Notes: generated from the sequence alone by a model not told the origin. 64,000 nt of DNA from Bacillota bacterium (GCA_050952085.1 JBMNKH010000003.1:38626-102625), one strand, 5' to 3'. Positions 5,462 through 38,376 are shown, counted from the stretch's first letter. Numbers and translations: made by a program.

Positions 5462-5809
5462 GGGGGCGAATCAGGTTCGACGTAGGTAATTGGGTTTGAG
5501 TAGCGAGCATGGGTGCCGCACCCACAACAGCGGCAAACAAATAACTGCCAATACAAATTACGCACTGGCTGCTTAATTAGACAGCCACGGTACCAGGGAG
5601 AAAGCTTCCCTATCCCTGAGCTACCGTCACTAGGGAAGATACCTGTAAGGGGGTGCTCGGGACCTTACAGGGAACCCGATTCTGAGCTGGCGGGGAAAGA
5701 AGCCCGCTCCGGGGCGGCTTACCCTGCGAGAACAGTACCGGAGCTACGCTCGTAGAGACTGAAACTTGGTTGCTTGCGGACGAGGGTGCAATTCCCTCCG
5801 CCTCCACCA
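5462..5809 (+). ncRNA. ssrA: tmRNA; tag ANTNYALAA encoded at 5547-5576
   Basis: 5' GGGGGCG pairs with 3' CGCCTCC-A-CCA; ATAACT-GCC resume context; tag ends YALAA-stop; next to smpB. Confidence 0.97.
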
Positions 5810-8789: not shown

Positions 8790-9263
8790 TTGCTCATAGG
8801 TGTGATTTCCGATTCCCACGGGAACAGGAAACGCATACTTGATGCGTTGCCCTATTTAGAAGGAGTTGAACATATTCTCCACGCCGGGGATTTCTTCGAA
8901 GATGCCCAGAACATAGACGCGGCGGTTAAGTGCAAGGTTACCGCGGTAGCCGGCAACTGCGACTATATGGTGCGCGGGCCTTTTGAAGAACTGCTTGTGT
9001 TGAATGGCTACAGGATCTACTTGACCCACGGGCATCTTTATAATGTCAAGCGGGACCTTAAGGCGTTGGTGGAAAGAGCTAAAGAGTTGGATGCACACGT
9101 AGCGGTGTTCGGTCATACCCATACTCCCCAAGTGTTCTGTGAAGACGGCATTCTTATCGTAAATCCAGGGAGCCTCCATAGCCCACGGCAGGGCTATCAG
9201 CCTTCTATCGCGATGATAGACCTTTCGCAACGGCCTCCCAGGGCGGATCTTATATTCCTATAA
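8790..9263 (+). CDS. YfcE/MJ0936-family metallophosphoesterase
   Basis: SDSHG, HAGD, GNCD, THGH, FGHTH, NPGS. Confidence 0.93.
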   Translation: MLIGVISDSHGNRKRILDALPYLEGVEHILHAGDFFEDAQNIDAAVKCKVTAVAGNCDYMVRGPFEELLVLNGYRIYLTHGHLYNVKRDLKALVERAKELDAHVAVFGHTHTPQVFCEDGILIVNPGSLHSPRQGYQPSIAMIDLSQRPPRADLIFL

Positions 9264-9307
9264 CCGGTGTTCGTGGCAAGCTCCCTCCGGTAATTTCCCT
9301 TGGGGCA

Positions 9308-9806
9308 TCTGTTGCACCAGGTGTACCATTAGGGAGGCTTTTATTGGGGAACGGTTCGGGATGGTGAGTCTGGTGCACCGTTTCGGCGACGTGCGGCGGG
9401 GGATCTAGCCAGATTGGGGTACGTGGTGCACCACTATAATCGGATACTGTATCGAAGTCACTCACAATGGTGTATGTGATGCACCATTCCTTCAGCAATC
9501 CACTTGAGAAGACCTAAGAATGGTGCACAGGACGCACCAGTTGGATTGGATTTCTTCCGGTAAAGGCGAAAATCGGTGCACCCGGTGAGCCATTTCAGTT
9601 GACGAATGCCCGGAAGCTAGGCAAAACGGTGCACACGGTGCACCATTTTTCGAAGATCCGGCGCCAAGGCAGAGATGATTGGTGCATATGATGTACCATT
9701 TTCCTGCTTTCTGCGGTCAGGGCTGTAAGGGTTGGTGCATGTGGTGCACCATTTTGCTGGTTTATGTGAGGAAACCGCGGAAGAATGGTGCACAGACTGC
9801 GCCATC
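9308..9806. repeat. Array of ten degenerate 23-bp palindromes (AATGGTGCA-N5-TGCACCATT) with unique 30-bp spacers, 53-bp period
   Basis: Units start at 9308, 9360, 9413, 9466, 9519, 9572, 9625, 9678, 9731 and 9784. Confidence 0.92.
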
Positions 9807-9890
9807 CCAAGCCGGAGTTGGTTTGAAGCAAATGACGAATGGGATGTCTGGATGTCTATTTGGGATTCGAGAGGGGAGAGTCCTATCCAT

Positions 9891-9919
9891 TTGCTTCAGC
9901 ACTGCAAAAATCATATAAT
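9891..9919 (+). promoter_or_regulatory. Putative sigma70 promoter of tRNA-Pro
   Basis: TTGCTT-17 bp-TATAAT about 50 bp upstream of the tRNA. Confidence 0.65.
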
Positions 9920-9971
9920 ATCTCTAGCCCTCGAGCTATCGAGCAACTTAAGACCGCGAATGAGCGAGTGT

Positions 9972-10048
9972 CGGGGAGTGGCGCAGTTTGGTAGCGCGCA
10001 TGGTTTGGGACCATGAGGTCGCAGGTTCAAATCCTGTCTCCCCGACCA
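9972..10048 (+). tRNA. tRNA-Pro (TGG)
   Basis: Acceptor stem CGGGGAG/CTCCCCG, anticodon arm CATGG-TTTGGGA-CCATG, T-loop TTCAAAT, encoded CCA. Confidence 0.98.
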
Positions 10049-10245
10049 TAATGTTTCCTGTTAACAGCTGCAATCCGTGAATGGCAGTGGCGCTCTTCAT
10101 GAGAAGTATCGCCCTCGCAAGCCAGAATACTTGGAGGAGCAATCAACCTCTGCTCTTGAAGGACTTATGACTGCTGAGAGCATAGTTCGCCTGTGTTTCG
10201 TTACAGACAGTTACAGCCAGGAAGAACGAGCCGCACTAGGATCGC

Positions 10246-10620
10246 TCAAAAGCGCTGGGCCGACGCTAGTTCCGCTCTTCGCATAGCATGGGAAGCTAAC
10301 AGTCCGATCACCGTTGACAGAGACACCAGGATAAGTCTCATTCGCCAAACTTGGACCCTATCATCTAGCCACAGTGCCCTTAGCAAGTCTGCGTGGCAAC
10401 TGAGAGGATTCATCTTTCCAATCACCTGAAGCCATTGAGGGGCAGAGGACATATCGTACAGTGCTGACGATGAGAAGACCACGGGAAGAAACACTAGGGC
10501 ACTAACTAAGTCCCTGGTTCCATAGTCAGTGATCCTAATGACTATGATGGACCCAATAACGTCTAAAGGGCGATTCCCGGGATCGCCCCCACAATGAGAG
10601 CGACGCTTCTTAGGGCAAAC
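10246..10620 (-). pseudogene. ABC-2 type permease fragment
   Basis: LVFLPVVFSSSALY....P.WLQ.I...NPLS...D.LR C-terminal signature; upstream frame broken near 10562. Confidence 0.65.
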
Positions 10621-11226: not shown

Positions 11227-11643
11227 TTGCCGCTGGGGAGATCAATTGTCAGGGTTTTTTGGAGGGTTGGGAAGATGCTTATCATACTAGCGCTTCTGGG
11301 CGGAAGCATCTTGTTGGTTCGGGCTGCCTATCGCCGCTACAGGCACACGGTTGGCCAGCTTGTGGGTAGTCTGGGGCTAGATCTTCTTGGCTCAACGTTT
11401 GTCGGCATGGGCATGTCCCTTCCTGCGCTGGTGCTGTTTTTTCTTACGTGGATGCAGAACTCTGAACGCCGTCGATGGATCATATCCGGACCCTATCCTC
11501 TGGATAGACTTGGCAGTGGTCCCCTCCAGGTCTGGATTGGCATCCTTGGTGTGGTAGTTGGTTGTATTCTGTTATCACTGGGGCTAATCATCCGCACTTA
11601 TGCGTTTTCGTCAGATAGCAGAAGTAACCATACTCATTCGTGA
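11227..11643 (+). CDS. Hypothetical membrane protein (3 hydrophobic segments)
   Basis: Open frame with TM stretches; likely start near 11275 after GGAGG. Confidence 0.5.
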   Translation: MPLGRSIVRVFWRVGKMLIILALLGGSILLVRAAYRRYRHTVGQLVGSLGLDLLGSTFVGMGMSLPALVLFFLTWMQNSERRRWIISGPYPLDRLGSGPLQVWIGILGVVVGCILLSLGLIIRTYAFSSDSRSNHTHS

Positions 11644-11672
11644 GCTCCGACCCCTAAAAAGGAGGAGTATCA

Positions 11673-12648
11673 ATGAGGAAGTATCTACAACTAGTATATG
11701 TCTCTTTAGCCCTGATTCTTTGTTTGGTTGGCACTTCGGTTGTCACTGCGGCGAATGGCAGAGTACTAACGGCGACACTCTCTTTCTCAAAACCCGTCTA
11801 TCTTGGGTCATTAGCGGAACATATTCTCAAGTATCCTGGGCTCGCTGTGGCAGAGGTGCGTTACACATACCCGGGCGAGACACCGGTTGTTCGGGGGCAT
11901 CTTGCCGCCCCAGGGTCTTTCTGCAGTTGACGCACTTGAATACGTCCGCGATTTCTACAGAAACATGGTACTGGCTCTCCACGAAGGAGAGGCAGCGAAA
12001 CGGGCCACTAACCTCGAACAGCGACTACTGGATTTGGAGACACATGGCGTTCCGATCTATGGTATCGCGCTAAGAGGACCGGCGAACATTCTCAGGTCTC
12101 TACAGATGGATACGCATGCCGATTTCGCTTCGTTCACTGATAGAGAGAGAGCAATACCTGCCAAGTACATTGAGTACCCAAAGCCAACGCGTCCCCGCGC
12201 CGAGAGTGTGGAATCTGCTGAAACCACAATAGTGGAAGGTGACGCAGCGTGGTCTCCAGCCTACGGCGTTGCCACCACGTATACCGACCATGAAGGGTGG
12301 CGCTGCATCTACAATGAGTTCACATGGCTAGGCACGTCTGTCCTGGAGTTCGCGTCCAACGAAGGTTACGAGCATGATTTCGTTACCAACAACTACGATG
12401 GTCTTCACTGGGCGGCAGGCCTTCGAGGTACTTCAGGGTTGGGATGGGAGTCGAATCTTCCAAATGCGTATCTGGATTACGCTACTATTGATGACGATCC
12501 TGAAGAGCCAGTATACACCGTTGGAACGTTCACCGGTAATCAGCTCTATTCCAACACCGACTACTACACTTTCATAAGAGCGTATCCGGGCAATGCCTCA
12601 TCGGATACCGCCAAATTAGTGGGTCAGCCCTTTTCGGATCTGTCATAA
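11673..12648 (+). pseudogene. Putative secreted protein split by a frameshift near 11890-11915
   Basis: AGGAGG SD, signal-peptide-like MRKYLQLVYVSLALILCLVGTSVVTA, overlapping continuation ORF 11887-12648. Confidence 0.55.
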
Positions 12649-12663
12649 GCCACGGTTTTCGAC

Positions 12664-12981
12664 CTACTCCAATATTTCCCCCATTCGTAGGGCCCTGCCC
12701 ACCAAAAGCCGTTCTTTATCCGGGCAGTAACCGTACCTAAGGGCTGGCACCACACCAAACTTGCTATCAGGGAATTCTATACTGGCAGTCTTGCCTTCAA
12801 CACTCCCTCTGGTCTGACCATATCCAGTATAAATGTATCCTTCCCATGCCACGTTTCCTTCTGAATCAATTACTTCATTTAAGGACAACAGTCGGGTGAG
12901 CGGTGTTGAGGAATTCATTGTATATTTCGATGTAATTCTTAATCTCCCAATACTCGTGATTAATACCGACGTTACTGCCAC
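12664..12981 (-). pseudogene. Hypothetical protein fragment
   Basis: 105-codon ORF with no clear start or SD and no recognisable family. Confidence 0.25.
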
Positions 12982-13220
12982 ACAGTAAACTTGTTACCGC
13001 CGCATGCTCACAGCATCTATGCCCCGAACGAGGGGGTTCAAATTCTCACACACGGAGAGAGGCGGAGATAGTAAGTCAAACCTTTCCTGTAATACGCTAT
13101 GCCTAGAAGTTAGGACGGGGCATGGCCGTGCTCATTTGGTTCCCGTACATGGTACTTAGTAATGGTGACCACGTCTTTCTCATGGCAGAAGCCCCCCTTA
13201 GCTTCGGGTGTGGACTTGCA

Positions 13221-13500
13221 TCAGAAGAAGAAACCTTTGGGCAAACTTAGCATATTTGATGTTATGTTCTGGATCATGTGAATCATGATCGGAAATACCA
13301 AGCTGCCGCCAAGGGTGGGCGAGTAGAGCGTGCTTAACCAAATACCGGAAAGGAAAGCCGAGAACGGGTTCCTATGCCCTAACGCGAATATCGCGCTGGA
13401 AACAATCGCAGCGGGCCAAAAACCAACAATTGTACACAGACGATTCAGCAGGAACCCACGGTACAAGAGTTCCTCTTTGATAGGAGCTAGAAAATAAGGA
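13221..13500 (-). pseudogene. CPBP/Abi (CAAX protease family) intramembrane metalloprotease, 5' truncated
   Basis: EELLYRG, FALGH and H..QN motifs. Confidence 0.8.
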
Positions 13501-13503
13501 ACC

Positions 13504-14100
13504 TTGTGGGAAACAAAGGATTTCCGTGCATGGTTAACCAAGCAACCGCAGAACCTACAATATCCAGTCCAAAACATTATCGGATCTAATAAGGACTCGG
13601 AAGTAATTGTCGTGGTCCTCTCCCCTGACAGATACAGGGAGTGGCTGGAACTATACACCAATGAGTCAACAAGAATAATGGTTGCCGAATCGTCCATTGT
13701 AGTACCGAGGAGCTTCCTTCCCATTGAAGTGACTCGCCATCTATCTGCTAGTGAGGTACAATATGGCTATACCTCGAGCGATGAAGCTGTCATTGTGACT
13801 CTATCTGGTGATGAATGGGTAAAATGTCCCTACTGCCAGATCCTTGTATCAGCCCTTATAGGTTGGGCGCTCGGTCGCTTTGTATTTGATCCCTTGTGGA
13901 ATGCGATGGAGGCGGAATGGAGGAAGCATTTCACTTCCAAGGACTGTCCTCATAGCTGGAGTCTGACAGCCGAGACCTATGAAAGATGCGCATCCTGTAA
14001 TTACGGACATCTTAGTTTGCTCTCGAATTGGGGATATTCTATCGAAGTCCGGTGCGATGCCTGCGGAGATAGAGATATTCGCTGGAATCCACTCTACTAG
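13504..14100 (+). CDS. Hypothetical Cys-rich protein, probably 5' truncated
   Basis: 198-codon ORF with CPYC, CASC and CDAC; followed by a hairpin. Confidence 0.5.
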   Translation: MWETKDFRAWLTKQPQNLQYPVQNIIGSNKDSEVIVVVLSPDRYREWLELYTNESTRIMVAESSIVVPRSFLPIEVTRHLSASEVQYGYTSSDEAVIVTLSGDEWVKCPYCQILVSALIGWALGRFVFDPLWNAMEAEWRKHFTSKDCPHSWSLTAETYERCASCNYGHLSLLSNWGYSIEVRCDACGDRDIRWNPLY

Positions 14101-14118
14101 TTTGAGTAAACAGACTGT

Positions 14119-14150
14119 GGCACTCGTCAGACTCTGACGAGCGCCTTATT
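14119..14150 (+). terminator. Hairpin terminator
   Basis: GGCACTCGTCAG-ACT-CTGACGAGCGCC followed by TTATT. Confidence 0.55.
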
Positions 14151-14383
14151 GATAAGGTGCTGCGGTCGGCCAGGTAAGGGCATGGCCACGGCTGTTCAAG
14201 AACCGAGGGTAGGTGACAGGACAGCCAACTGTAACAATAACCGAGGTAAGAATGCTATATTTAGACTAATCAACATGCTAAAAATAATGTAATAAGATGA
14301 GTAGGCATAGACTTTTAAGCGACAAATAAAAATTTATTGAGCTGTTCTGAACACAGCTTGTTATATGCCTTAAACGAGAAATA

Positions 14384-14931
14384 ATGGCCGATACAATGAA
14401 TGATTTCTATACAAGGAAAGGGATCCCACCTCTATTTAAAGCATCAAAGAATGCCCGAATTGCCGTAGTTGGGCAAGCACCAGGGCGAAAAGCAGAAGAA
14501 ACTCAATTGTTCTGGAATGATTTAAGTGGCGACCGCCTTCGGGAATGGATGGGGGTATCTAGTCAAGAATTTTATGAGACCGACCGTATTGCCCAGTTAC
14601 CCATGGATTTCTACTACCCAGGTAAAGCCAAGCAAGGGGATCTGCCACCCCGCAAGGGATCGCAGAAAAATGGCATCCCCGGTTGCTGGCAGAAATGCCA
14701 AGCATAGAAACGATAATCCTCGTTGGAAGTTACGCGCAAAAATACTATCTTGCTGAAAGAAGGGAGAAAAACTTAACTGAAACGGTAAAGAGCTTTAAAA
14801 ACTATCTGCCACAATACTTGCCATTGGTTCATCCTTCTCCACTAAACATCGGGTGGTTCAAACGGAACCCATGGTTTGAAAGCGATGTTTTACCTATCCT
14901 AAAAGAAATAGTGAGAGGAAGTCTAAATTAA
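14384..14931 (+). pseudogene. Uracil-DNA glycosylase family protein, frameshifted near 14660
   Basis: VGQAPG, WND.SGDRLR.W, MDFYYPG, GDLPPR in one frame; EKWHP, LVG.YAQ, PLVHPSP.N in the next. Confidence 0.85.
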
Positions 14932-15107
14932 GACTATGTCACCTGCAACCCCCGCCACCCTGGCACGGGACTTGAAACCCTGGAGGAACGGAGTATCTGG
15001 CCCAGGAAGTTCAGCCCATAGGCATGTTCCCTTACATGAGTCGTGAGGAGTGCGTTGCCTGTTGGCAGTCTTTAATTGGCGCTTTGGGGCGAATTGGAGG
15101 GATAACA

Positions 15108-16646
15108 ATGAAAACGTATGAAGCAGCGCGCCCAGCATTCAGGAAGCGCGCCACAAGTATCCTCATAATCGCGGCCTTTGTCATCGGCTTCTTTGGCGCA
15201 GCCGCCCTTGCCCTATATTTGCCGGACAGAAAAATAAAGACTCATTCATCGGCGGAAGAGTTCGCGGCTTTTCTGGATTATAGAGCCCCGAAGCTGATGG
15301 GGCTGTACGGAATACCAGGAGCTAGTATCGCCCTTGTTAGAGACGGGCAGATTGTATATTCGGCAGCCTACGGTGAAGCTAACCAAAAGTCTGGACAGAA
15401 AATGACGGTAGGCATGCCTATGCGCGTTCAATCCATATCAAAATCTGTAACAGCGTGGGCTGTACTGAAGCTGGCGGAGGAAGGGAAGCTGAATCTGGAA
15501 GATCCTGTCGAAACATACCTCAAGGGATGGAAGTTGCCTGCTTCAGACTACCCACCGAATGGTGTGACGATTAAGCGGCTGCTCTGCCACACTGCAGGAA
15601 TGCCCCTTGGCGATGTTTTTGCGCTTTACTCCCCGGATGAGGCTATGCCTTCTCTGAAAGAAAGCCTGACCCATTCGGCAATCCTGTTTCAAATACCGGG
15701 AAAAGGATTTTCCTATTCCAATGTCGGGTATAACTTACTGGAGCTTATGATTGAAGAGGTTACGGGAAGGGACTTTGCCGAATATATGAAAAACGAGATC
15801 CTCTATCCCCTCGGCATGTATCATTCGGATTTCGAATGGAGTGAAGAAACTCTGAGTTCCGTGCCCCTTGGGTACACGCTGGATGGTACGCCGGTCCCCC
15901 CCTATCGTTACCCTGAAAGGGCGTCAGGAGGATTGATCGCTACGGCGGAGGATATCGCCCGTTTTTGCATCGCGGGGATGCCGGATTTTTCTGATCAACG
16001 GGTACTTGCCCGCCCTTCCATTGAACAACTCTATTTTGAGCAGGCTGACAGCCTTGGAATATATAGCGCGGTATTTGATGCCTACGGCTTTGGCTATTAT
16101 ACTGAGGAGCTTTCGGACGGTAAAGTTGCGGTGTCCCACGGCGGGCAGGGAACTGGCTGGATGAGCCATTTCCATGCGGTGCCAGAAACGGGAGATGCGA
16201 TTGTGATTTTAGCAAACAGTCAGCGGAGCTGGCCGTTCATCTCAAGCCTCTTGAACGGATGGGCGCGCTGGCGTGGATTCTCTCCGCCCGGCATGGCGCG
16301 TATCCTCTTAGGGGAATGTTTTTTATGGGGATTAGTTGGTCTGACCATCTCAGTAACACTATGCCTTATAGCGGGTATTGTCAGGAAAATTATGAAGGCC
16401 AACCTACGGTCCAATCCCTGGCAGCAAAATGCGGTGAAACCAGCACTCATATTCAAAATAGGAATTTCCCTTTCGATACTTGCTATTCTTTTGTGGGCTA
16501 TTTGTCAAAAATACTTGTTCCTGACTTCCGTATTTCCGGTTTCATCGATATGGCTAGGGGTGTGCGCCGCCGCGTTTTCGTTGACTCTACTCATAGAGCC
16601 GTTTTTGCCAAAAATGATTAGTAGCGTTAATAAGATCAAGGGTTAA
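15108..16646 (+). CDS. Membrane-anchored serine hydrolase, beta-lactamase/AmpC-like family
   Basis: SISK (SxxK), LL.HTAG, YSN, HGG; N-terminal TM and three C-terminal TMs; GGAGG SD. Confidence 0.9.
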   Translation: MKTYEAARPAFRKRATSILIIAAFVIGFFGAAALALYLPDRKIKTHSSAEEFAAFLDYRAPKLMGLYGIPGASIALVRDGQIVYSAAYGEANQKSGQKMTVGMPMRVQSISKSVTAWAVLKLAEEGKLNLEDPVETYLKGWKLPASDYPPNGVTIKRLLCHTAGMPLGDVFALYSPDEAMPSLKESLTHSAILFQIPGKGFSYSNVGYNLLELMIEEVTGRDFAEYMKNEILYPLGMYHSDFEWSEETLSSVPLGYTLDGTPVPPYRYPERASGGLIATAEDIARFCIAGMPDFSDQRVLARPSIEQLYFEQADSLGIYSAVFDAYGFGYYTEELSDGKVAVSHGGQGTGWMSHFHAVPETGDAIVILANSQRSWPFISSLLNGWARWRGFSPPGMARILLGECFLWGLVGLTISVTLCLIAGIVRKIMKANLRSNPWQQNAVKPALIFKIGISLSILAILLWAICQKYLFLTSVFPVSSIWLGVCAAAFSLTLLIEPFLPKMISSVNKIKG

Positions 16647-16779
16647 CGGAATAGACTGTGATCGGCGACTTAACGCAATTTGGGGAGTTTATAGGGTGTT
16701 ACCCTCGATAAATGTTCATGGGAACATTGCTAGTTAATCATTTTATAGGGAGGAAACAACCATGCTCTCAAGCGCAAAG

Positions 16780-17070
16780 CCTTAAACTCCATAAAATATT
16801 AACCAATTATTTAAAAAATATCCGTAGGCCTGAAGTTAAAACAGATAGATTTTTTACTACTAATAAAACAGGCAGGGTAAGCAATAATTATGTCAATGGA
16901 TGCATTAGGAATGCGGTAATTAAGCTGGATTGGGACAAAGAGATAAGTGCCCATAATCTTCGACATTCTTTTAGCAGTAACTTACTTGAAAAGGAGAGCA
17001 TCCGTTGTAAGTATTCAAAAGTTGCTAGGTCATTCAAACTTGGCGGTAACAACCGATTTATACGGCAAAA
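16780..17070 (+). pseudogene. Tyrosine recombinase/integrase C-terminal remnant
   Basis: ISAHNLRHSFSSNLLEK, then ASVVSIQKLLGHSNLAVTT in a shifted frame; N-terminus absent. Confidence 0.85.
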
Positions 17071-17088
17071 GCAACAAAAATTATTGAG

Positions 17089-17787
17089 ATGATGAAGTTC
17101 CAAACTAGAAATGAAGTTGCAGAAAAATTGAATTATAAGACATGGAAAAGCCTGGACATGTACATGAGAAGAAAAAACTTTATTTATGATAGCAGTCAAG
17201 AGCAATATGTACCGGTGGAAATGAGAGAGAAGAAAGAAAAGGGATTTAATCTGCGCTCTGCACCGGATAAAGTTAGAAAAATAATAGAAGCCTTTGCAAA
17301 GGAAAACCCCGACCCAAAGGAAATTGCAAAGCAAGCAGGATTTAGTAGTCATAAAGAAATGGCAGAGTATATGAAGGTGAAAGGTTTTGAATGGAATGTT
17401 TATAGAAATAATTATATAAAAATCACAGGATTTAAGGAAAACGAAATTGACATAGAGCTTCAAGAAGAATGTGATAAAACTATTGAAGAATCCTCTGTTG
17501 CAGAGTTTATTCCTTTTATTAAATTTCTATATGATAAAAGGGAAAAGGTCTATCAGATAATAGATGGAGTTAGGGAAGATGGCATGATACCCAAATATGC
17601 AATTCCAGGACACTCAAGAAGTAAAGCTGTTTATATGAGCGAAAAATTGGCTAATACAGTAGGAGATTTTAGCAAGGAAAAAAACATAACACAGCGAGAA
17701 ATTATAGAAACTGCCTTAGTAGAATATCTACAGAAATATAGCTTCAAGCAAGAAGTAGAAGCATTACTCCAAAATCGCTCTTGGTAA
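17089..17787 (+). CDS. Hypothetical low-GC protein next to the integrase remnant, possibly DNA-binding
   Basis: Clean 232-codon ORF; two similar short units (EVAEKLNY..W / EIAKQAGF); C-terminal ..REIIETALVEYL. Confidence 0.7.
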   Translation: MMKFQTRNEVAEKLNYKTWKSLDMYMRRKNFIYDSSQEQYVPVEMREKKEKGFNLRSAPDKVRKIIEAFAKENPDPKEIAKQAGFSSHKEMAEYMKVKGFEWNVYRNNYIKITGFKENEIDIELQEECDKTIEESSVAEFIPFIKFLYDKREKVYQIIDGVREDGMIPKYAIPGHSRSKAVYMSEKLANTVGDFSKEKNITQREIIETALVEYLQKYSFKQEVEALLQNRSW

Positions 17788-38300: not shown

Positions 38301-38376
38301 CTCGGCGCGCAGGATACACCATTTGGCCGGCGCTTGCCTCGGAAACGCTGAGGATTGGTGCACAGGATACACCAAT
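38301..38376. repeat. Two units of the 53-bp-period palindromic repeat
   Basis: CTCGGCGCGCAGGATACACCATT at 38301 and ATTGGTGCACAGGATACACCAAT at 38354. Confidence 0.8.

Follow-up and report, generated by a model that had tools for sequence, protein, structure and literature searches.

A phased palindrome array ahead of a tRNA-Pro gene is probably an old member of a lineage-specific family of interspersed 53-bp hairpin repeats

What is a row of ten palindromes, set at almost base-exact intervals in the gap before a tRNA-Pro gene? The locus lies in a 64,000-nt stretch of a Bacillota genome (the window; G000:C3:38626-102625, from a 1.98-Mb assembly of 7 contigs, 96.3% complete), and an original prediction made from that sequence had described it as a strictly phased array of palindromes and unique spacers without cas genes. 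The layout itself was confirmed: ten phased 23-bp palindromes, whose nine intervals measure 53 bp in eight cases and 52 bp in the other, lie downstream of a metallophosphoesterase stop codon, the gene being the third in a row RNase PH/Ham1 ITPase/phosphoesterase, and upstream of the tRNA gene (Table 1). The array was also found to end, as proposed, about 85 bp before a promoter-like site of the tRNA gene (85 bp from the last hairpin to TTGCTT-17-TATAAT). This site, recognised by eye, is kept in alignments with the genomes G003 and G004 and was absent from a consensus scan, its first hexamer showing only 3/6 matches. A covariance model (see below) recovered nine units and one weak unit on the + strand with 20.9–49.1 bits, as against 12–19 bits on the – strand, and the nhmmer scores of the two strands were 175 and 63; the array thus runs forward along the + strand. 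Tandem Repeats Finder did not report the array because its linkers are too diverged, and a search of the window against Rfam yielded tmRNA and tRNA only, with no match inside the array.

Table 1 Features of the array locus and of a second, smaller site in the window (window coordinates)
Feature	Position	Strand	Basis
Calcineurin-like metallophosphoesterase gene, upstream of the array	8790..9263	+	Pfam PF12850, 1.1e-35
Hairpin-repeat array, ten 53-bp units (23-nt hairpin + 30-nt linker)	9308..9806	+	covariance model, nhmmer
Hairpin 1, degenerate	9308..9330	+	covariance-model E = 0.32
Hairpin 2	9360..9382	+	covariance model
Hairpin 3, 3' arm includes the left GGTGCAC direct repeat (362-bp difference between G000 and G003)	9413..9435	+	
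Hairpin 4	9466..9488	+	covariance model
Hairpin 5	9519..9541	+	covariance model
Hairpin 6	9572..9594	+	covariance model
Hairpin 7, terminator-like (hairpin, then T run)	9625..9647	+	
Hairpin 8, terminator-like	9678..9700	+	
Hairpin 9, best-kept unit (49.1 bits), terminator-like	9731..9753	+	covariance model
Hairpin 10, 5' arm includes the right GGTGCAC direct repeat	9784..9806	+	
Promoter-like site TTGCTT-17 nt-TATAAT before tRNA-Pro	9891..9919	+	by eye
tRNA-Pro (UGG)	9972..10048	+	
Second mini-array, two units: partial hairpin, 30-nt linker with GGAAAC, good hairpin	38301..38376	+	nhmmer cluster C3:76935-77008

Searches of the whole genome placed the array in a family. The pattern TGGTGCA-N5-TGCACCA (≤2 mismatches) occurred 168 times per strand, compared with 6 times for a reversed control, so that chance is no explanation for the array. 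With ≤3 mismatches, 133 of 157 intervals between neighbouring sites measured exactly 53 bp, seven measured 52 or 54 bp, and four 106 bp. A profile built from 171 oriented units (nhmmer) gave 308 matches in the genome, all of which fell within 18 arrays and two tiny sites, one of the latter being the mini-array of the window. The 18 arrays are intergenic and contain 2–18 head-to-tail copies each, single units being almost absent; the approximately 170 units, all of them intergenic, span about 9 kb, or about 0.46% of the genome. When G000 was scanned for chains of 19-nt palindromes of whatever sequence at 53-bp steps, the family was represented by the TGCA arm type only. The same scan also returned one unrelated chain of three sites with different arms.

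Each unit measures 53 bp and consists of a 23-nt hairpin-forming palindrome, A-W-TGGTGCAC-GTG-GTGCACCA-TT, followed by a 30-nt linker. The oriented consensus of the family reads A.TGGTGCAcgTgGTGCACCATT TTggc.g........c.g.AAAc..g...., in which nothing of the linker is conserved beyond its T-rich beginning and a patch resembling GAAAC. TTTT directly follows the consensus hairpin, and an A run lies about 21 nt beyond this T run, i.e. in helical phase. The 5-nt centre of the hairpin, previously taken to be free, turned out to be biased to YGTGR in one orientation. Judged by these loops and by the strand preferred by the covariance model, which strongly favoured one strand in every array except one, all units within an array are direct copies.

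The linkers had been described as mutually unrelated, and the array as no simple tandem repeat. Comparison with the sister arrays overturned this description. In the best-kept arrays (C3:12191, C4:79637, C4:497924 and C1:332072) the 30-nt linkers are clearly homologous, two linker types often alternate with a super-period of 106 bp, and the same linker types were found in two arrays on separate contigs. Since the linkers of these better-kept arrays are copies of one another, the family is a tandem repeat of 53-bp units that retain their hairpins while their linkers drift. Between arrays, hairpin stems were identical at a fraction of 0.80 and linkers at 0.345, while linker length was retained, which bears out the earlier remark that length is conserved and sequence is not. 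The window array is the most diverged of all (stems 0.70, linkers 0.29). Even here, linkers compared in register reached 31.3% identity versus 25.4 ± 1.3% after shuffling, and none of 500 shuffles attained the observed value; the signature of a minisatellite is hence plain in the sister arrays and weak in the window array. We conclude that the window array is probably an old, sequence-decayed member of a lineage-specific, interspersed 53-bp hairpin-repeat family.

To compare the repeat between species, we built a covariance model from 38 units of three species (A1, R1). In the resulting alignment 80.8% of the cells were paired, and the arms showed compensatory changes: columns 6–18 were occupied by UA in 21 units and by CG in 6, and columns 7–17 by GC in 22, AU in 6 and UA in 4. 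The outer TGG...CCA was invariant, and the inner arms varied yet remained complementary. Compensatory change that keeps complementarity points to a folded nucleic acid rather than to a plain double-strand operator, and thus argues for hairpins with a conserved stem base ATTGG/CCAAT that fold as RNA, as single-stranded DNA or as a cruciform.

Within the genus, only some genomes contain the exact TGGTGCA-type arms in large numbers. At the locus of the window array, the spacer between phosphoesterase and tRNA-Pro is occupied by 53-bp arrays in G002, where the arms read TGGTACA...TGTACCA, and in G004, where they read TGGCTCG...AGAGCCA; G001 lacks an array there. The covariance model matched 7/7 genomes of the genus with 15–137 matches each (at most 150 candidates scored). 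In a neighbouring genus one of two genomes was positive (G012, 8–11 matches, arrays of 2–3 units with the 53-bp period). None of the remaining 24 family genomes searched gave more than one marginal match, and in a class-wide sample matches occurred in 7/151 genomes, two of these being single marginal ones and the rest belonging to the lineages just named. We further scanned 185,579 species genomes for three TGG-N13-CCA sites spaced at 53 bp and took 80 loci. Among the 80 loci listed, 45 were phased palindrome arrays, and 40 of these came from MAGs titled Candidatus Fermentithermobacillaceae, Bacillota, Firmicutes, Eubacteriales or Clostridiales. The listed arrays comprised at least four arm types (TGCA, TACA, CTCN and CCTA), all with 53-bp spacing, and two arm types occurred under one MAG title. 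The family is confined to one genus and a neighbour of it, the MAGs concerned bearing the titles Candidatus Fermentithermobacillaceae or Bacillota, and the period of 53 bp, noted at first for a single locus, holds at other loci, in other species and with other arm types.

Unit number differs between relatives, as expected of a tandem repeat of constant-period, head-to-tail units. The window locus holds ten hairpins in G000 and about three in G003, namely hairpins 1 and 2 and a composite of the left part of hairpin 3 and the right part of hairpin 10. The difference amounts to 362 bp between GGTGCAC direct repeats, i.e. 7 x 53 – 9 bp, which is no whole number of units. The non-coding flanks of the array are 94–100% identical between the two genomes, the adjacent genes only 78–89%; this high flank identity could reflect selection or recent exchange. 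At the Ddl locus, 18 homogenised units in G000 correspond to 8 units with diverged linkers in G003, all spaced at 53 bp, and a search of five other genomes of the genus failed to recover the LeuRS-ComEA array, which carries an insertion-sequence (IS) end. The arrays thus expand, contract and homogenise locally.

A clue as to how arrays reach new loci came from their flanks. A trailer of about 100 nt is conserved in the oriented 3' flanks of several arrays, and its last 26 nt correspond to the terminal inverted repeat of a resident 1511-bp IS, which is present in G000 in 7 full copies plus deletion forms. Its transposase, a 458-aa open frame in some copies, contains HTH and rve domains (Pfam) and scored 295.5 bits with NCBIfam ISNCY_2 (cut-off 250). 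The element has 26-bp terminal repeats, copies of GTCACC/GGTGACA near both ends and 16-bp target duplications. IS1202-family elements are described in PMC10132070 as about 1.5 kb long with imperfect terminal repeats of 24–26 bp, a DDE transposase of about 450 aa with an N-terminal HTH, and an extra internal copy of the transposase site near each end; a long-duplication subgroup generates duplications of 16–28 bp. The resident IS fits this long-duplication subgroup of the IS1202 family (ISNCY; PMC10132070).

By blastn, IS positions 1 to 28–57, comprising the left end, the 5' leader and the transposase ATG, adjoin 6 arrays. In all six, the IS left end lies at the array 3' end and is oriented so that its interior side points towards the array. 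Just the last 9 nt of the left end survive at a seventh array (by eye). Solo fragments of the left end abut arrays in 6 of 8 cases, despite the small share of the genome that arrays occupy. The junction between IS and array is identical in four arrays, with the transposase ATG retained in front. The array at C4:239083 is bordered by the IS right end on its other side as well, and its flanks match at 12/17 positions; at C3:366231 a right-end-like 26-mer with 4 mismatches was found. The same order of left end and array recurred in a record of another species (L096). Retained IS ends around arrays denote non-autonomous elements of the form IS left end, (53-bp unit)n, IS right end. One subfamily of the arrays, at least, is thus carried inside a non-autonomous element with IS1202-family ends, laid out as left end, transposase start codon, array, right end and what seems to be a decayed long target duplication, and such elements account for the arrival of arrays at new loci. 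They provide a concrete case of the seeding of tandem hairpin arrays around a genome and join an internal hairpin satellite to IS1202-family ends, two things usually treated apart.

This link does not extend to every array. IS ends are missing from 11 of the 18 arrays in G000, and the window array showed no significant IS-end remnant, since 77/500 (trailer) and 404/500 (leader) shuffles reached the observed score. An exact IS-end 12-mer was located near only 2 of the 45 listed arrays, only one of them confirmed by blastn, and a motif scan around the same arrays gave 7 'inside' and 3 'outside' matches, mostly noise at two mismatches. The transposase was detected in 10/33 genomes of the family, six array-free genera among them, without tracking the arrays; it was not found in G012 or in four genomes of the genus, all of which have arrays and are fragmented MAGs. 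This independent distribution means that the arrays may predate the IS-derived element and be merely captured by it. Three further resemblances were set aside: the likeness of the G004 trailer to the IS left end was not significant; the IS-like trailer of the Ddl array proved, by eye, to be the promoter-like site conserved upstream of the S21 gene; and contig C43 of G001, on which an array seemed to adjoin the IS interior, is 99.2% identical to G000 over 1591 nt. Contig C43 was likely mis-binned or recently exchanged and was therefore left out as independent evidence.

In architecture the arrays are closest, by analogy, to the pneumococcal BOX elements (PMC3049150) and to IS-derived MITEs. BOX elements of Streptococcus pneumoniae follow the scheme boxA-boxB(n)-boxC, with variable internal modules and a copy number that varies between strains; they are predicted to form stem-loops when transcribed, and their termini resemble those of a resident IS (PMC3049150). 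The IS-ended 53-bp arrays likewise are intergenic and combine terminal modules with variable tandem internal ones, a parallel of architecture for which no homology is claimed. They differ in that the 53-bp module is itself a near-perfect palindrome, repeated up to 18 times at a base-exact period, and in that most arrays, including that of the window, are without detectable terminal modules. As in MITEs, a transposase gene is lacking and the location is intergenic; some of the arrays, though not that of the window, also have terminal inverted repeats that equal or closely resemble those of an IS in the same genome (by blastn the left end in 6 arrays, by eye in one more, both ends in 2), and the flanks of C4:239083 noted above may be a remnant of the long IS target duplication. 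Unlike MITEs they enclose an internal satellite of up to about 1.1 kb, and only 6–7 of the 18 arrays have IS ends.

REP/BIME sequences, as described in PMC2817692 and PMC3333891, are short, high-copy intergenic palindromes that are regularly clustered, transcribed and species-specific. The 53-bp family matches this description, with its short, imperfect intergenic palindromes in about 170 copies. BIMEs, however, alternate in orientation whereas the 53-bp units are all direct, and REPs also occur singly whereas the family is nearly devoid of singletons. Furthermore, a search for the Y1/RAYT transposase (PF01797) gave no match in the 96.3% complete G000, the enzyme associated with the 53-bp arrays being a DDE transposase of the IS1202 family. 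The family also recalls plasmid centromeres of the sopC type in its tandem units, each with an inverted repeat, and in its helically phased spacing. Such centromere arrays occupy one locus per replicon beside their partner genes and are conserved across the whole unit; the 53-bp family differs in having 18 loci, no partner gene and drifting linkers. By analogy, a constant stem base below a variable inner stem also calls to mind the folded attC sites of integrons. In a full-text literature search, 53-bp palindromic intergenic tandem repeats were found only for plastid genomes and Tetrahymena genes, none of them bacterial, and the name of the lineage appeared only in one paper on another subject. 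The repeat family of this uncultured thermophilic-digester lineage is apparently undescribed.

The best-supported reading of the family is a BOX-like, IS-associated hairpin satellite. Units would be gained and lost through recombination between hairpins, whole arrays would be moved by an IS1202-family transposase acting on the retained ends, and old copies such as that of the window would lose their ends and their linker sequence. The window copy may have arrived or arisen in the manner of the IS-bounded arrays before its ends disappeared. Its RNA would include, or adjoin, that of the phosphoesterase gene's 3' end, and its hairpins would act as nucleic-acid structures, possibly as weak terminators or stem-loops protecting 3' ends and as recombination points, similar to REP and BOX sequences, and not as guide-RNA spacers. 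Hairpin complementarity kept by compensatory change, and linkers close to saturation yet almost free of indels, argue that the family goes beyond a neutral satellite. A purely selfish or neutral satellite leaves the indel-free linkers and the flank conservation between G000 and G003 unexplained.

The array might instead be a cis-acting RNA element and nothing else, in which a hairpin plus U-tract terminates, insulates or stabilises the neighbouring mRNAs or the tRNA precursor in the manner of REP and SPRITE-like sequences. We regard this account as possible but not probable. Three units of the window array are terminator-like on the + strand, where 0.9 were expected, in keeping with the TTTT that follows the consensus hairpin. 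Seven arrays, including that of the window, lie between co-directional genes, and in 7/7 of these the direction of the array is that of the genes. Metatranscriptome contigs from four biogas-fermenter runs cover the array (9108-9975, 9171-9665, 9311-9774 and 9346-9780; strand, ends and processing cannot be read from them), and their word depths resemble that of the upstream gene, DNA carry-over being possible for X15. Downstream, positions 10076-10223 were uncovered in two of the metatranscriptome runs and thin in one, an internal contrast that is no proof of silence. Contig 9108-9975 of X15, however, spans all ten units up to the tRNA, so that termination would be weak at best. Moreover, five arrays lie between convergent and six between divergent genes, the latter being promoter regions, and RNA hairpins have no need of a fixed 53-nt spacing. 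G-U outnumbered A-C mismatches by 151 to 93, without a clear mark of one RNA strand. Global RNA folds gave z = –5.0 and –5.3 for the two strands; in these folds hairpins from different units pair together, and they are uninformative on strand.

The fixed period could reflect a host docking lattice, in which a dimeric or structure-specific protein (reading cruciforms or hairpins) would occupy each palindrome and form a filament, a wrap or a topological buffer; at about 5 helical turns, 53 bp would put all sites on one face. The period holds at 133/157 intervals even where linkers are nearly random, and is common to four arm types and two genera. The near absence of indels in the linkers suggests a further constraint on spacing, for which a phased protein lattice would be the most natural candidate explanation, and such a constraint shows itself, cleanly and testably, in a period that is exact to the base whatever the species or arm type. 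The T and A runs in helical phase, the invariant TGG...CCA with complementary but variable inner arms, which would suit a structure-reading protein, and the flanks of the window array, more conserved than the adjoining genes, point in the same direction. Nevertheless, we judge a lattice of this kind unlikely. The 65 flanking ORFs of the 17 other arrays are unrelated housekeeping genes (neighbours include Ddl-array-S21, LeuRS-array-ComEA, EF-Tu, SpoIIE, peptidases and ABC transporters), with no gene family common to them that could supply a partner. The two arm types under one MAG title speak against a single sequence-specific binder, and arrays come and go among close species, as exemplified by LeuRS-ComEA. 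Unit number appears unconstrained (10 versus about 3, 18 versus 8), and part of the family is the cargo of a mobile element.

Arrays first spread by an IS1202-family element might later have been kept by the host as a domesticated, helically phased lattice of hairpins or cruciforms, bound by a structure-specific protein (or, on RNA, measured by a ruler-type nuclease). This is a long shot. If true, it would explain three features on which selfish-satellite models are silent, namely why linkers lose their sequence yet hardly ever their length, why arm changes are always compensated and why the flanks are more conserved than the genes, and it would constitute a novel type of regulatory element or chromosomal architecture.

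As for the CRISPR-like appearance from which the question arose, a palindromic repeat does alternate with a constant interval of 30 nt at several loci per genome, RNA-library contigs cover the array, and one array end that is conserved between loci looked leader-like at first. This conserved 'leader' is the IS left end. The claim that cas genes are absent stood for the vicinity of the array, the 53-bp arrays being flanked by housekeeping genes, and failed for the genome: G000 has two Cas1 genes on contig C1, each beside an array of its own, with 47 and 79–80 near-identical repeats at a period of 65–66 bp that are unrelated to the 23-mer. In contrast to these perfect repeats, the stems of the window array are degenerate (pairwise identity 0.70), and its apparent spacers belong to a family of decayed mutual copies. 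A search of 171 linkers against the genome outside the arrays returned only chance-level matches of 15 nt and overlaps at array edges, the window array had no match in phage or plasmid collections, and neither the repeat pair nor the one linker tried had an exact match in IMG/VR. The suggested comparison of spacers with phage, plasmid and self sequence thus revealed nothing CRISPR-like, no protospacers were found, and Rfam was blank in the array. The window array is not a CRISPR array, and a degenerate orphan CRISPR or a Cas-independent repeat-spacer RNA with acquired 30-nt spacers is very improbable. With the false lead of a Cas-less CRISPR removed, it should be kept in mind that such arrays disrupt short-read assemblies and carry a risk of CRISPR miscalls in MAGs.

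A protein-coding repeat translated from the retained transposase start codon can be set aside: the consensus unit lacks stop codons in all six frames (by eye), homogeneous arrays are traversed by open frames as long as 299 aa, and the ATG is kept ahead of four arrays, but 53 is not divisible by 3, conservation tracks base-pairing instead of codons, long frames are restricted to arrays homogenised of late, where either strand has them, and the longest open frame of the window array is at most 94 aa. Two further likenesses of the 23-mer were rejected. A resemblance to sigma-54 promoters (TGG-N9-TGCA, by eye) does not carry over to the other arm types, which lose the GC. Xer sites of the dif type are the target of some IS1202-family members, but the palindrome bears no relation to the one dif-like site found in the genome, which lies at C2:73759 and differs from a Bacillus motif at 5 positions.

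Beside the main array, the 53-bp hairpin family occurred a second time in the window as a short two-unit array, in which a partial hairpin was followed by a GGAAAC-bearing 30-nt linker and then by a good hairpin at 38354-38376. The non-coding surroundings of the main array (9264-9427 and 9790-9930) were 94-100% identical to the matching locus in G003, the genome of a related species, and the flanking genes of the two species shared 78-89% identity. Selection or recent exchange could each account for the high identity of the non-coding flanks. Among the matches listed, three records from unrelated taxa, titled Thiotrichaceae (L046), Dehalococcoidia (L077) and Okeania (L106), contained perfect or near-perfect 19-nt palindromes at an exact 53-bp period; these arrays may be ordinary tandem repeats.

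Downstream of the main array, RNA-library contigs from two runs joined position 10048 to 10418, with 23 different letters in between, which shows a strain variant directly past the 3′ end of tRNA-Pro. The downstream region 11227-17089 holds a truncated phage-integrase fragment alongside ORFs that lack Pfam matches. The variant and this downstream content each fit a tRNA-linked integration remnant, in line with the island insertion point suspected in the original prediction.

Features annotated in the window
Feature	Position	Detail
tmRNA gene	5462-5809	tag peptide ANTNYALAA
Truncated phage-integrase fragment	16712-17089	Pfam
Two-unit mini-array	38301-38376	53-bp hairpin family

In G001, the genome of a further relative, contig C43 matched positions 78397-79987 of contig C4 of the source genome (G000) with 99.2% identity over 1591 nt. 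Since this value far exceeds the ~77-89% identity to G000 at two further G001 loci (L009 and L153), the contig was probably mis-binned or recently exchanged. Its array continues into an internal IS fragment.

A 37-nt segment of the 79-repeat CRISPR array of G000 (C1:354161-354197) was 97% identical to a part of the IS1202-family element resident in this genome (element positions 1145-1181) and looks like a spacer against the cell's own insertion sequence. In one copy of the element (C1:223416-224926) the transposase frame was broken into ORFs of 266 and 148 aa; some other copies had an open 458-aa frame. The sole dif-like site found in G000 was located at C2:73759, with 5 mismatches to a Bacillus dif motif.
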